Of a stretch of DNA of 64,000 nucleotides, positions 15,993 to 20,021 are shown piece after piece; position 1 is the first letter of the stretch, and each line of letters begins with the position of its first letter. The DNA is from Bacteroidia bacterium (GTDB lineage: Bacteria; Bacteroidota; Bacteroidia; Chitinophagales; Saprospiraceae), in assembly GCA_030433135.1 (NCBI GenBank), contig JAUILF010000001.1, positions 2,891-66,890 of the forward strand, read 5' to 3'. The notes under the pieces were generated by a model that made no database searches, had not been told where the DNA came from, and was given only the letters and a program-made list of their open reading frames with translations. Both the position numbers and the translations under genes were made by a program.

Positions 15993-18900
15993 TTATCTAT
16001 CTTGGAGCCTATCTCTAATTTTTTCCAAAACCTCCAACCATGCAGAGTCAGTATCTTTGTGCGCCGTGATAGGTTTGCCATCTTTTGGAATTACCTGAAA
16101 GGTGTTAAGAGGTGGTTGTTGCCATAGACATGGACGAACGATTACCGGCATGATGACTGCCTTCCCTTCATTATGGCGCTCGACGGAGCGTTTGAGTTCT
16201 ACCTCCTTGATGAACTTGGATGCTAAAAAATCAGTAGACACCAAAAATATAATGAACTCCGAATGCTCCATTGCATCATTGATCTCTTTATGCCAATCTG
16301 ATCCGGGTTTAATTTGGCGATCATCCCAAACTTTTAAGTCGATGCTATATTGAAGAGAGTTTAGCCAGGACTGAAGTTCCTCTTTGTATTGCTCATCTTC
16401 ATGGGCATAGGAAATAAATATTTTAGCCTTATAAATATCTTTAACATTTCTTCCTAAAACTTCCGCTATAGAAATATTACGATTACACTGAGTACATGTA
16501 ACCGATTTCTGTCCTTGCTCTTCTAACGCCAACACTTTTTCTTCAACGAATATGTAATTACAATCTTTCACTGGGCAATATCGGATAACTTCAACGACAA
16601 GCCGATCATTGACCTCTCTAAAGATTTCATCTAACCAATGCTTCCTAAATGCATCTGCTTCCGCACCGACAATTTCCACCCGAATTTCCCTCCTGTGAGA
16701 GATGGCCTCGATCTTCGCGAAAACATTGTCTTTGTTGATAAGAATGCCCGTACGCCACCAGTTATTTCTCTCAGCATATTTGTTTAGCTTCACTATAAGG
16801 CGAGCAATAATTCCATTATGCAAAAAATCATATTTGTAACCATATTTGATTGATTGATTACTATCCCACTCGAATTCAGGCTTTTGATCATTCAAAAATT
16901 GAGGAACTATAAATATATCCTTCTCATCGGCTAGCTGAAAACATATTTCAAAGTTTCGCATGAGCTCCAGGAATATTTGAATTTCCCGCTCACTTCTGAA
17001 TCTAAAGTCTTCTTTGTATCCTTCCTTTTCCTCCTCTTTCATATTAACTGTCAGATCAGTCATTGTGAACTCCCCATGTCGTGCCTTAATCTGTTCATTC
17101 AAGAACCGATAAATGATTCTAGTCGTCTTCCGCGGGTTAAGGATAACCATTTCTTTCAAAATGGTATTATTGGGAAAATGGATGATCACTCCAATATCCG
17201 TAAGGAACCTGCTTAGGGTTCCAGCATTTTGCTCTGATATATCATGCTCAAGACAGATTTCCAAAAACTTATCATACTTGAGGTAGTGCAAGTCCTGACT
17301 CAACTCCACCAGTATATTTCTGACAGCCAGCCAACCTGCACCAAGATCGTATCCGATCAAATCCTTCAACTTCGGTGCCATCTGAAATTGCACACCAATA
17401 CTCTGTTTTAAAACATCGATATTCCAACTCTTGGCAGCACTCACCGAAAGAGTTTCTTTAACATTCCAATCCTCATTTTCTTTCAAAGTGGTCAGGTCAT
17501 ATCCCTTGATGGAAGGATCTTCCATTTTATTTTGAACTACCAAAACCGGACTATGTTGACTGAGGTGGCTAACATTATCCAACCAATAATTGAAAACGAA
17601 ATTCTGTTCCTTTTCAGGATATTCCTCAGCATCGGATTGCGTTTCTGAATCCCACACCAATATGTACAATGCCCGGTTAGTCAGGAAGAATCGATGCGTG
17701 TTATGATAAATTTCCTGTCCACCGAAATCCCAAATATTCACATTGACTTCCCGTCCATCATCCAAGCGTATCTGCCACTTCTTGATCCGAATCCCATGGG
17801 TCGATTTTTCATTCGGATCATATTGATCCTTGACCAAACGTTTTGAAAGAGAAGTTTTTCCAACACGACCATTTCCAACAAATATCAGTTTGGCTTCATT
17901 AATTCGGGAAGCAGAACCTTCTTTTTCGAGGTGTTCCTTCCTTGCATGAGCAGACTTTTCGAAGATCAACAATTTTGAATTGTCAATATAGTCGCTATAT
18001 GCCTTGACCGTATTTTCTTCCTGCGTTCGTTCCCAAAGTGCTTGATCTTCAGCTTCAAATCGATTAAAAATTGCCTCAACTTCATCAAAATACTTACCAT
18101 CTGGAAATTGGCTTCTGTAGCTATCAATTAAATTAATTTCTTCATTTGATTTTATTCTTTGAAAAAGTTCATCTTCCTCGGTCCTTAGTCTCAAATCGTT
18201 TATCGATTTCATTGCCTCCTGACGATACGTGCCGAGTGTGGTATTATCTAAATACTCTTGGTAATTCTTAATGCTATCTGTGCTCAGGGCGTTTTGCCAA
18301 AGCCTTTCTTCTGCTAAAAACTGATCAGAATCATCTTCCACATTTTCCTTGATCAGATCATCTCCAGACTCCTCGCGAAGTCTTTGAATATCTGACAATT
18401 CAATATTTATACTTTCAAGAATCTTACTTTTTTCAGCAATAGAAGATATATCGAGGTATTTCCTGCGGAGCGATTCTATTGTGGTTATTTTTTCATTGAT
18501 CTTTAGAACGACATCCTGAATATCATCAGGTCCAGATCTCTTAGAAGGTTCCTCTTTAAGTAAAAAGCCACTTTTGAAATCAACAGTATTTAATTCATCA
18601 ATTAGATCTAGAAGTGCTGAATTGATTTGGTTGCGCGCAATGGAGTAGTCCTGCCGTGAGATTCGCCCTTCCCTATTGTTACTTTCATTACGATCAAACC
18701 GATTGTTCAATAATCTGTATTGATTGAAAAAATCTGAATTTACATCTAAAACCCTTCCTAATTCAGTAAATAGAGATTGAATTCTTCCCTTTGAAATAAA
18801 TTCGCGGAACTGACTTCTTACTGGTGCCATATACGCCGTTGCGTTTGATGAGGAAGTATCTTCAGTAGGCTCTGAAGAAACGGACTTTGAAGACCCTTTG

Positions 18901-20021
18901 AGGGGCTTGAAATAAAACATTCCACCTTCATCCCCACCAAGATTTAAAGGAACTATCACAACATCCTTCAGTACCGAGTACAACTCTTGGACACCCACTT
19001 CGGAAGTCAGGTTTTGCAAAAACTTGGTCAACTGAGAGGTGAATCGATTTTTCCATTCCGAGTCCTGTCGATGCAAAAGCCAGCGGGAATTAAAGGATTG
19101 TCCCTCAAAACTCGTATTTCGAGTTTGGGTAGCAATGTTGGAATAAAAGTAAAAATCGATGATGATCAATACATGCTGTGCGTGCATTCTACTGATTGCT
19201 CGGTAGATTCCATCTTGATGTATTATATCCATATCAAAAGGAAAAATCCCAATCTCGTTAGGACCATCTGCAATTTGACCGGAAAAATATATGATGACCG
19301 AATCACGTTCTTTGGAAACCTCTGCAAGGTTATTGAGTTGCTCATAGATCGCATGACTGGTGGCTTTTTGGTTATGCAATTCCGTTATAATGAATCCATA
19401 TCTCTCCTTTAAAACTCCTGCCAGCTCTCTAGCTTCTTTGATCCGTCCTTCTTGAGGTGAAAAACCAGGGTCTTGATACTGATCAATTGCAATACTCAGT
19501 AGACGAAATTCTTCCTCAGCCTTTTGATTTTTGCTGAAGTCTTCGAAGTATCCTTTAATAGCATCAATACCCCGTAGGGCGATTTCTATGGGAGGCCTTT
19601 TCAAAGGGTTATTGTCCAGAATCAATGATTTAAGATTCGGTAATTGAGCGATTTCCTGGGGGAGTGATTCAATTTCATTGTTTTGAAAATCGCCGAATTG
19701 TAAATTTTGCAATTCCAGAATTCCTTGTGGAACTGAATTGATTCTGTTGTCAGAGAATTGTAATTCTGTCAAAAGCTTGAGTTCCAAAATCTCGGTAGGA
19801 AAGTATGAGAATTCATTGCCATTTAAACTTAAAATGGTCAACCTTTTTAAGTTAGCTAGTCCATACAGACTTCTCAGTTTATTTCCTGAAAGATTCAAAT
19901 CTTTCAACCAATGGCATTCAAATAATTCACGTGGCAAGGATGTCAGGTTAAGATTGCTTAGATTGAGGCTCTCAGTCAAGCTTTTTCTTTCTTGCTCAAT
20001 TCGCTCTAATGCAGTATTCAT
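15993..20021 (-). CDS. ROCO-type GTPase, 1342 aa: LRR / degenerate caspase-like / EAD11-like helical module / helical repeats / Roc / COR / Zn-ribbon / TIR
   Basis: Domains, in residue numbering:
- LRRs at residues about 15-145 (LNLSGNKL, LSLNGNEF, FSDNRINSVP, FQNNEIESLP, LDNNPL).
- Caspase-like module at 172-300 with both catalytic positions lost (IIYFSGQI, IIIDFYFYS).
- EAD11-like module at 402-478.
- Roc at 710-880: G1 FVGNGRVGKTS, G3 WDFGGQE, G4-like VQNKMED.
- COR-like region at 880-1145.
- CPVKDC...CTQC at 1149-1179.
- TIR at 1199-1342: KIFISYAHEDE..FIIFLVSTDFLASKFIKEVEL. Confidence 0.9.
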   Translation of the reverse strand: MNTALERIEQERKSLTESLNLSNLNLTSLPRELFECHWLKDLNLSGNKLRSLYGLANLKRLTILSLNGNEFSYFPTEILELKLLTELQFSDNRINSVPQGILELQNLQFGDFQNNEIESLPQEIAQLPNLKSLILDNNPLKRPPIEIALRGIDAIKGYFEDFSKNQKAEEEFRLLSIAIDQYQDPGFSPQEGRIKEARELAGVLKERYGFIITELHNQKATSHAIYEQLNNLAEVSKERDSVIIYFSGQIADGPNEIGIFPFDMDIIHQDGIYRAISRMHAQHVLIIIDFYFYSNIATQTRNTSFEGQSFNSRWLLHRQDSEWKNRFTSQLTKFLQNLTSEVGVQELYSVLKDVVIVPLNLGGDEGGMFYFKPLKGSSKSVSSEPTEDTSSSNATAYMAPVRSQFREFISKGRIQSLFTELGRVLDVNSDFFNQYRLLNNRFDRNESNNREGRISRQDYSIARNQINSALLDLIDELNTVDFKSGFLLKEEPSKRSGPDDIQDVVLKINEKITTIESLRRKYLDISSIAEKSKILESINIELSDIQRLREESGDDLIKENVEDDSDQFLAEERLWQNALSTDSIKNYQEYLDNTTLGTYRQEAMKSINDLRLRTEEDELFQRIKSNEEINLIDSYRSQFPDGKYFDEVEAIFNRFEAEDQALWERTQEENTVKAYSDYIDNSKLLIFEKSAHARKEHLEKEGSASRINEAKLIFVGNGRVGKTSLSKRLVKDQYDPNEKSTHGIRIKKWQIRLDDGREVNVNIWDFGGQEIYHNTHRFFLTNRALYILVWDSETQSDAEEYPEKEQNFVFNYWLDNVSHLSQHSPVLVVQNKMEDPSIKGYDLTTLKENEDWNVKETLSVSAAKSWNIDVLKQSIGVQFQMAPKLKDLIGYDLGAGWLAVRNILVELSQDLHYLKYDKFLEICLEHDISEQNAGTLSRFLTDIGVIIHFPNNTILKEMVILNPRKTTRIIYRFLNEQIKARHGEFTMTDLTVNMKEEEKEGYKEDFRFRSEREIQIFLELMRNFEICFQLADEKDIFIVPQFLNDQKPEFEWDSNQSIKYGYKYDFLHNGIIARLIVKLNKYAERNNWWRTGILINKDNVFAKIEAISHRREIRVEIVGAEADAFRKHWLDEIFREVNDRLVVEVIRYCPVKDCNYIFVEEKVLALEEQGQKSVTCTQCNRNISIAEVLGRNVKDIYKAKIFISYAHEDEQYKEELQSWLNSLQYSIDLKVWDDRQIKPGSDWHKEINDAMEHSEFIIFLVSTDFLASKFIKEVELKRSVERHNEGKAVIMPVIVRPCLWQQPPLNTFQVIPKDGKPITAHKDTDSAWLEVLEKIRDRLQDR

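Follow-up and report, generated by a model that had tools for sequence, protein, structure and literature searches.

A Saprospiraceae LRR–Roc–COR–TIR protein with an embedded pseudo-caspase and EAD11 domain, a candidate GTP-switched conflict protein

A candidate conflict protein built around a Roc GTPase

We analyzed a 64,000-nucleotide stretch of contig JAUILF010000001.1 (positions 2,891 to 66,890 of the forward strand; GenBank assembly GCA_030433135.1) from a Bacteroidia bacterium of the family Saprospiraceae; this whole stretch is hereafter the window. It carries a gene for a Roco protein of 1342 amino acids, in which leucine-rich repeats (LRRs) are followed by a caspase-like domain lacking both catalytic residues, an EAD11 adaptor domain, a Roc GTPase with its COR region, a four-cysteine knuckle and a C-terminal TIR domain. 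Our preference, which is a cautious one, is to regard it as a single-chain conflict protein that is switched by a nucleoside triphosphate (NTP), acts in antiviral defence or regulated cell death, and belongs to the LRR–Roc–COR ('AP-GTPase') class. The gene is accessory, and the window copy lies in a mobile-element-rich conflict island.

Domain organization and the Roc–COR switch

The open reading frame (ORF) is uninterrupted over 1342 codons on the minus strand, from an ATG at 20021 to a stop codon at 15993-15995. An earlier note, made from the letters of the window, had proposed its domains, and HMMER mapping recovered every one of them (Table 1). The proposed LRR N-terminus was confirmed by Pfam LRR_8 and LRR_4 matches spanning residues ~17-142; it is presumed to be a ligand-sensing or autoinhibitory module. 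In the alignment, one 24-aa repeat that is present in homologues is missing from the window protein.

The GTPase motifs are intact and lie where the note had placed them: GNGRVGKTS at 716-724 (G1), DFGGQ at 765-769 (G3) and the G4-like NKME at 831-834, all at the expected spacing, and the domain matches Pfam Roc with an E-value of 3e-30. A homologue, P0003, has the canonical NKMD at the G4 position. The COR-like region was likewise borne out by Pfam (COR-A, 896-1043, E=2e-28; COR-B, 1056-1189, E=4e-19), and both parts sit immediately C-terminal to Roc, as Roco membership requires. The nearest solved structures of this region were MbRoco2 (4wnr, 1.8e-49), CtRoco (3dpu, 6hlu and 8r4b, ~1e-44) and LRRK2 (~7e-20); the alignment with CtRoco and MbRoco2 is full length, whereas that with LRRK2 is weaker. 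An N-terminal LRR, Roc–COR and the G1, G3 and G4 motifs are common to CtRoco, MbRoco2 and the window protein; compared with CtRoco, the latter adds a TIR domain after COR and an insert of ~530 residues between LRR and Roc.

According to Pfam, this Ras-like Roc is the sole NTPase domain of the protein, and a STAND-type NACHT or NB-ARC switch is absent. Membership in the STAND/NLR family (Avs, bNACHT) was considered and rejected, since the switch is Roc and the STAND protein of the island is encoded by a separate gene (10720-13851).

The CPxxxC...CxxC zinc ribbon suggested by the note was also found, with CPVKDC at 1149-1154 and CTQC at 1176-1179; the region gives a weak Pfam IBR match (0.011). 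Twelve of the 13 representatives of the pseudo-caspase Roco family have these four cysteines, the exception being P0007, whose ORF is broken inside the knuckle. Shorter LRR–Roc–COR–TIR proteins lack them, and of the other Roco proteins checked just one, P0027, matches the pattern, at a different position. The knuckle is a marker of the pseudo-caspase Roco family.

The TIR domain

The C-terminal TIR domain and its Glu context stood up to examination: Pfam TIR_2 matches residues 1201-1311 (E=8e-18), a PADLOC ThsB-type model (ThsB1) gives 7e-36, and the sequence KEVELK is found at 1272-1277. HMMER alignments to AbTIR (7uwg/8g83) and PdTIR (3h16) pair E1275 with the W-x3-E Glu, the catalytic residue (E208 in AbTIR). 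A Glu is kept at this position in 15 of the 16 Roco-TIR sequences aligned. The TIR of the Roco protein is probably a NAD-destroying domain.

With AbTIR, PdTIR and the Thoeris protein ThsB, the Roco TIR shares the match to TIR_2/ThsB-type hidden Markov models (HMMs) and the position of the Glu, but it is fused to a GTPase switch and its W-x3-E motif has an extra residue. The strong ThsB match led us to consider Thoeris membership, which was rejected for want of ThsA: no ThsA-type effector (SIR2, SLOG or Macro) was found among the neighboring genes scanned.

A pseudo-caspase in a putatively captured effector block

With the window sequence alone, the caspase assignment was weak (PADLOC caspase, 0.0095; NCBIfam, 0.0072), and a sequence search of the PDB with the caspase-like region gave nothing meaningful (best E=0.39). 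We built a profile of residues 165-378 from seven close homologues and scored it against 1.84 billion representatives. At E<=1e-3 it matched 3537 proteins, 330 of them at E<=1e-10, and a caspase domain is present in each match that was inspected or scanned. The top matches are more distant proteins of the same architecture, and the lower-ranked ones inspected have an ordinary caspase domain. Family members match Pfam Peptidase_C14 at 1.5e-6 and PADLOC caspase at 4.8e-6. At the family level, these profile matches make the caspase-like assignment a solid one.

The earlier note had described a caspase module with both catalytic positions substituted, and two alignments agree with it. In an hhalign comparison with the active caspase encoded nearby (E=5.5e-4), SGQ of the Roco protein pairs with SGH, and IIIDF with VVADC. 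In a multiple alignment with intact relatives, which have FSGHG and DSCFSG, the window protein has Q249 at the His position and Y291 at the Cys position (sequence DFYFYS). Both residues are lost in every Roco-embedded copy: the His column holds Q, W, Y, R or L, and the Cys column Y, H, L, F or P, with no Cys in any copy. The non-catalytic motifs SRW and GDEGG.F, common to active relatives, are kept. A structural model of this region had also been proposed; an AlphaFold2 (AF2) model of residues 150-482, made with a 6-sequence alignment, shows a strand and helix order in the caspase part that is compatible with a caspase fold, but its predicted local distance difference test (pLDDT) values there are 30-60 and it was not fold-searched.

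In the same model EAD11 forms a four-helix bundle with pLDDT of 83-89. The suggestion of an EAD11-like helical hairpin was right in that EAD11 is present (Pfam, 3e-14) and wrong about the fold, as this is a genuine EAD11 and is predicted to be a bundle rather than a hairpin. Hairpins do occur further along the chain: by phmmer, the repeats at 566-705 match repeats that directly follow the caspase domain in the stand-alone caspases P0074, P0170 and P0116. The helical tail behind EAD11 is also found in stand-alone caspase–EAD11 proteins. We applied a local EAD11 HMM to 211 fetched proteins; among the 150 best caspase-like representatives it revealed seven non-Roco caspase–EAD11 proteins (for example, P0153 and P0194), all of which keep the catalytic His motif and five of which also keep the Cys motif. 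A 15-domain EAD11 profile had no match at E<=1e-3 in an index of 5.8 billion proteins.

Because the hairpin repeats and EAD11 match those of stand-alone caspase proteins, the block of residues ~172-705 has the look of a caspase–EAD11–coiled-coil–hairpin-repeat effector that was captured, placed between LRR and Roc and then deprived of catalysis. The caspase, EAD11, helical tail and hairpins of this block match those of the stand-alone caspase–EAD11 (P0153, P0194) and caspase–hairpin (P0074, P0170) proteins; the stand-alone proteins retain FSGHG and DSC[FY]SG, whereas the Roco-embedded copies lost both residues.

A small family with an accessory distribution

A word-indexed search returned six full-length homologues of the Roco protein with 54-56% identity and another whose TIR is split off, and an exhaustive search added P0063, P0064, P0066, P0068, P0069 and P0080. 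The family is small (~13 cluster representatives), and its named sources are solely Saprospiraceae metagenome-assembled genomes (MAGs). Two pseudo-caspase peptide patterns, searched in one genome per GTDB species, yielded four loci, all in Saprospiraceae MAGs.

Identity differs between domains; in the following ranges the lower value is that of the window protein against its homologues and the upper value that within a syntenic clade. Roc is the most conserved domain (74-92%), and COR-A (65-86%), TIR (61-78%), pseudo-caspase (55-78%) and LRR (55-83%) are also well conserved. EAD11 is the least conserved folded domain (34-36%, even in the clade where Roc is 92% identical); EAD11 matches of family members with the domain reach 3.5e-20 in Pfam. 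EAD11 is thus the fastest to diverge, and the LRR is not hypervariable. The good conservation of every domain other than EAD11 and the linkers speaks for a functional protein. P0007 (L005/L009, SGMAG-95, gene 10001-14396) has a second, tandem EAD11 as a ~100-aa insert.

The syntenic clade consists of P0002, P0005 and P0007 (70-82% mutual identity), whose genes share one locus, between a Sortilin/Vps10-like gene and the gene for chorismate synthase; the former is a type IX secretion system (T9SS) gene. We surveyed this slot by searching for the flanking genes in 52 loci from metagenomes that surround relatives of the Sortilin-like gene. In locus L015 the Roco gene is present. In L014, whose Sortilin-like gene and chorismate synthase are 89% and 95% identical, the slot is occupied by a gene for an unrelated 275-aa membrane protein with no Roco remnant, and in L016 it contains a PepSY-like gene only. 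Across L001, L004, L005, L006 and L014-L016, the slot holds the Roco gene, the Roco gene with a PepSY-like gene and small genes, the PepSY-like gene, or the membrane protein gene. Thus, in close relatives with flanks 85-95% identical, the Roco gene is absent or replaced by other genes. P0003 and the window copy are found in two further contexts, unrelated to this slot.

The Roco gene is accessory because the slot is variable in related MAGs. The earlier note had allowed that the gene might be broadly conserved in a syntenic housekeeping context, and the variability of the slot among close relatives speaks against this. We likewise rejected the possibility that it is a housekeeping neighbor of chorismate synthase, since presence and absence vary among close relatives.

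Relation to known systems

Conflict systems centred on the AP-GTPase, which is the Roc domain, were described computationally by Kaur, Iyer, Burroughs and Aravind (eLife 2021, e70394; PMC8195603, Fig. 6D; hereafter Kaur et al.) as having rapidly evolving N-terminal LRRs, COR and at least 24 alternative C-terminal domains, among them TIR, caspase and effector-associated domains (EADs). The published class is a computational prediction of a counter-invader system. According to the same study, the STAND NTPase of these systems can be displaced by AP-GTPase; the earlier note had seen Roc as standing in place of a STAND switch. Its Fig. 6 source data list LRR+AP-GTPase+COR+TIR (many proteins, 800-970 aa) as well as versions with +EAD11+TIR and +EAD11+CASPASE; EAD11+LRR+S1+S1+AP-GTPase+COR is also catalogued, many of the listed proteins are from Saprospiraceae, and Haliscomenobacter hydrossis has 11 paralogues. 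The window protein has the N-terminal LRR, AP-GTPase and COR of this class, with TIR and EAD11 in the same polypeptide, and the accessory, variable context of AP-GTPase conflict systems is found as well, in the island genes around the window copy and in the presence and absence at the slot.

It follows from this catalogue that the architecture was less isolated than the earlier note supposed: no named, experimentally validated system matches it, but the class was catalogued in 2021. The same applies to the proposal of a GTP-gated TIR effector, which fits the domain evidence and appears reasonable, but is not new. What does appear to be new is the order of domains. In the window protein, EAD11 and caspase lie between LRR and Roc instead of C-terminal to COR, with the TIR at the C-terminus; unlike the architectures of Kaur et al., it also has a dead caspase and a four-Cys knuckle on COR-B. 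This order was not seen in the source data of PMC8195603, where the strings 'EAD11+AP-GTPase' and 'LRR-repeats+CASPASE' gave 0 matches, although proteins of this order may be filed there under a simpler label. In PADLOC, the window protein matched the TIR and caspase modules only.

Two other comparisons are informative. In Runella, the activator of a bacterial gasdermin is a Roc–COR–CHAT protease, as reported by Johnson et al. (bioRxiv 10.1101/2021.06.07.447441). There, Roc–COR is fused to a caspase-superfamily death effector, as in the window protein; the active CHAT of the Runella protein, however, cleaves gasdermin, whereas the window protein has a dead caspase-like domain and a presumed TIR output. 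We found no other bench-studied Roc–COR effector fusion in the literature, nor, in the literature searched, a physiological role for CtRoco or any bacterial Roco protein. Avs/bNACHT proteins and plant TIR-NLRs follow the same logic of a repeat sensor, an NTP switch and a TIR death effector in one polypeptide, but their switch is a STAND AAA+-type ATPase, whereas that of the window protein is a Ras-like GTPase with COR.

Proposed mechanism and alternatives

In the mechanism that we favor, the LRR would hold the protein auto-inhibited, recognize an invader-derived ligand, or both. Roc–COR would convert the LRR event into a nucleotide-dependent conformational or oligomeric change, as in the Chlorobium tepidum Roco, one nucleotide state being the 'on' state. 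Through this change the TIR domains at the C-terminus would become able to associate with one another and to hydrolyse or cyclise NAD+. The outcome may be growth arrest or death of the infected cell, or a signal nucleotide. The pseudo-caspase–EAD11–hairpin block could serve as an assembly or docking surface, with EAD11 binding EAD11-tagged proteins homotypically; candidates are the neighboring 244-aa EAD11 protein and active caspase–EAD11 proteins elsewhere. In favor of this mechanism are the domains and motifs themselves, the retained TIR Glu, the closeness of Roc–COR to bacterial Roco proteins of solved structure, for which GTP-driven monomer–dimer changes are published (PMC5714945, PMC11052575), the published prediction of the class as a counter-invader system, the Runella gasdermin activator, the island setting and accessory status of the gene, the conservation of most domains and the existence of stand-alone caspase–EAD11 proteins.

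Several observations weigh against this mechanism. CtRoco monomerises with GTP (PMC5714945, PMC11052575), and TIR NADases need oligomerisation, which leaves the direction of gating unclear. No experimentally tested Roco defence protein was found in the literature, LRR–Roc–COR–TIR proteins included. Relative to W-x3-E, the TIR motif is longer by one residue in the interval from the aromatic position to the Glu, a feature common to nearly all Roco-TIRs aligned, short ones included. The LRR is 83% identical within the syntenic clade, unlike many pathogen sensors, and the caspase-like part was modelled by AF2 with low confidence. In P0007, the TIR is a separate 146-aa ORF after the break inside the knuckle. 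Finally, EAD11 of the 244-aa protein is 52-74% identical among orthologues and 22% identical to the Roco EAD11, and the gene for this protein adjoins a Roco gene in no other locus found.

These last points also bear on a different arrangement, in which the Roco protein is mainly a GTPase-controlled platform that recruits and activates separate effectors through EAD11, perhaps with heterodimerisation of the pseudo-caspase. It would then resemble a death-fold platform with a FLIP-like pseudo-caspase; the effectors would be active caspase–EAD11 proteins, the neighboring caspase–TIR protein or the 244-aa EAD11 protein, and the TIR of the Roco protein itself would act as a scaffold or as one output among several. 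The EAD principle, by which one copy of the domain is on the core NTPase and others are on effectors, is published (PMC7159879, PMC8195603), and the window fits its letter: a second EAD11 gene lies 1.4 kb upstream of the Roco gene on the same strand, with the active caspase–TIR gene just beyond. The existence of caspase–EAD11 proteins that stand alone and have kept the His motif, the preserved SRW and GDEGG.F motifs and the fast divergence of EAD11, as expected for shifting partner specificity, point in the same direction. However, adjacency of the partners is not conserved, as homologues of both genes sit alone (four homologues of the 244-aa protein stand alone among housekeeping genes); the 244-aa protein has no recognizable enzymatic domain and the neighboring caspase–TIR protein has no EAD11. 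The EAD principle would predict adjacent EAD11 copies to be mutual closest relatives, which was rejected on the identities given above. A specific partnership of the Roco and 244-aa proteins is not supported beyond proximity, and we consider the platform arrangement unlikely, though it deserves to be kept in mind.

A more specific idea of this kind, speculative and rather doubtful, is a prokaryotic analogue of a death platform: the Roco switch would control the pseudo-caspase–EAD11 part, acting like FLIP or a death-fold adaptor, which would on activation nucleate EAD11-tagged active caspases and further EAD11 proteins while the TIR depletes NAD+. If true, one GTP-gated sensor would have two death outputs, and partner specificity would evolve rapidly through EAD11.

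The protein might instead respond to an endogenous cue, and be a switch for regulated cell death or differentiation in a filamentous bacterium of multicellular type, not an antiviral sensor. The restriction of the family to Saprospiraceae MAGs, inheritance at one locus within the clade with 70-82% identity and an LRR that is not hypervariable would all be in keeping with such a role. However, presence at that locus varies among close relatives, and the window copy has mobile elements and further TIR, caspase and STAND genes around it; slot variability and an island setting are hallmarks of accessory conflict genes and not of developmental regulators, and we regard this role as improbable. It is very hard to credit that we are dealing with a relic, decaying or non-enzymatic, or that the TIR is an interaction module without NADase output. 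The pseudo-enzyme state of one domain, the broken TIR junction of one homologue, a TIR spacing one residue off W-x3-E and the truncated recombinase copies and transposase fragments of the island would fit such a view, but the ORF is intact at 1342 aa, the GTPase motifs and TIR Glu are kept across ~13 diverged representatives with Roc 74-92% and TIR 61-78% identical, and the altered spacing is also found in shorter LRR–Roc–COR–TIR proteins.

A GTP-gated conflict protein would be of interest for several reasons. LRRK2, the Parkinson's protein, has made Roc–COR GTPases a subject of intensive study. If the Roco–TIR protein is a GTP-gated immune or suicide effector, Roc–COR would gain a simple, assayable output in the loss of NAD+, bacterial innate immunity would have a second, non-STAND class of NTP switch, and there would be support for the proposal that DAPK and other AP-GTPase death proteins of animals are of bacterial origin. 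The locus is also a clear example of an effector that was apparently captured and turned into a pseudo-enzyme scaffold. The simpler LRR–Roc–COR–TIR proteins of 800-900 aa already catalogued would be equal or better test cases, and the added value of this locus is moderate.

Genomic context

Table 1. Features of the window, with coordinates in the window and, for domains, residues of the Roco protein
Feature	Position	Strand	Basis
Whole Roco gene: LRR–pseudo-caspase–EAD11–Roc–COR–Zn-knuckle–TIR, 1342 aa	15993..20021	-	ORF list, translation, Pfam
LRR, aa ~17-150	19572..19973	-	Pfam LRR_8 5e-12, LRR_4 3e-8
Pseudo-caspase, aa ~172-373	18903..19508	-	C14 homology; His to Q249, Cys to Y291
EAD11 adaptor domain, aa 403-480	18582..18815	-	Pfam EAD11 3e-14 (403-477)
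Helical linker of low conservation, probably coiled-coil, aa 481-565	18327..18581	-	Alignment, identity 35-51%
Three helical-hairpin repeats, aa 566-705, W..A....Y..Y....G.Y..EA	17907..18326	-	phmmer
Roc GTPase, aa 706-880	17382..17906	-	Pfam Roc 3e-30 (711-833), motifs
COR-A (aa 896-1043) and COR-B (aa 1056-1145)	16587..17336	-	Pfam; CtRoco alignment
Four-Cys knuckle, C1149/C1154/C1176/C1179, C-terminal end of COR-B	16452..16586	-	Cys pattern
TIR, aa 1199-1342, E1275 at the catalytic Glu position	15996..16427	-	TIR_2, ThsB1
~150-nt repeat copy abutting the Roco start codon	20032..20170		Repeat search, alignment
DUF4062 protein	4862-5962	-	
DUF772 transposase fragment	9584-10015	-	
DUF4062–STAND NTPase, 1043 aa	10720-13851	-	
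LytTR regulator	14595-15344	-	
EAD11 protein, 244 aa, possible partner	21389..22123	-	Pfam EAD11 2.5e-14
Active caspase–TIR fusion	23149-24393	-	
ThsB-like TIR	25049-25636	-	
Tyrosine recombinase and IS91 transposase	25746-27679	+	
Another TIR protein	27794-29041	-	
Pentapeptide-repeat protein	30268-31248	-	

No second Roc–COR gene was found within the 64-kb window. The 244-aa EAD11 protein starts at the ATG at 22123 and not at the upstream GTG at 22360, judging by its four homologues (241-252 aa). In an AF2 model (pLDDT 87), an N-terminal EAD11 is followed by an all-alpha repeat of ARM/HEAT type; a fold search gave only generic helical-repeat matches (E>=0.15, TM<=0.36).

Further copies of the ~150-nt element are found at ~7000-7170, ~21165-21320 and ~22264-22420, on the same strand and roughly 60-85% identical. 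Two copies lie directly 5' of the two EAD11-containing genes, and the one at 22264-22420 creates the spurious N-terminal extension of a 323-aa ORF that contains the 244-aa EAD11 gene. No Rfam family matched the element, and its copies gave no convincing evidence of a conserved RNA structure. Scans for sigma-70 promoters and terminators were at background level, with models that are probably not applicable to Bacteroidota. The 1.37-kb interval from the Roco gene to the EAD11 gene (20022-21388) has only short, implausible ORFs, including a 185-aa ORF at 20350-20907 with no family match and an odd composition, and is probably non-coding or degraded.

Elsewhere in the island, a truncated recombinase copy (22485-23149) and a full copy (25714-26382), 89-100% identical, bracket the caspase–TIR and ThsB-like genes, and the bracketing recombinase gene precedes an IS91-family Y2 transposase gene (26699-27679). 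In its layout the caspase–TIR and ThsB-like pair resembles a mobile cassette, and it is reminiscent of type IV Thoeris, in which TIR and caspase are paired. The gene for the DUF4062 (TIR-like)–STAND/NACHT-type protein is preceded by a 205-aa ORF without a family match (together 10720-14499, minus strand) and is probably a separate NLR-like conflict gene of the island. A ~100-nt element is present at 27668-27769 and 30139-30238 (85-87% identical), just 3' of the TIR and pentapeptide-repeat genes, and could be a cassette boundary or a terminator-like repeat. In the first part of the window (1-4860), no ORF of at least 100 aa on either strand and no Rfam match was detected over 4.8 kb; this is unusual for a bacterial genome, and the region could consist of pseudogenes or non-coding DNA.

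Downstream of the island, an extracellular contractile injection system (eCIS) gene cluster occupies 37427-63937 on the minus strand. It encodes an AAA ATPase, a CIS tape-measure protein and three eCIS_core (DUF4157) proteins with AHH and Endonuclease_NS_2 nuclease tails, and also holds giant ORFs of 2443 and 1351 aa, for which no Pfam match was obtained where they were scanned. Between the island and this cluster lies a gene for a TPR protein with a C-terminal adenylate/guanylate cyclase domain (E=4e-57; 35227-37080, plus strand), and a similar TPR–cyclase gene is found near the Roco homologue in L004.

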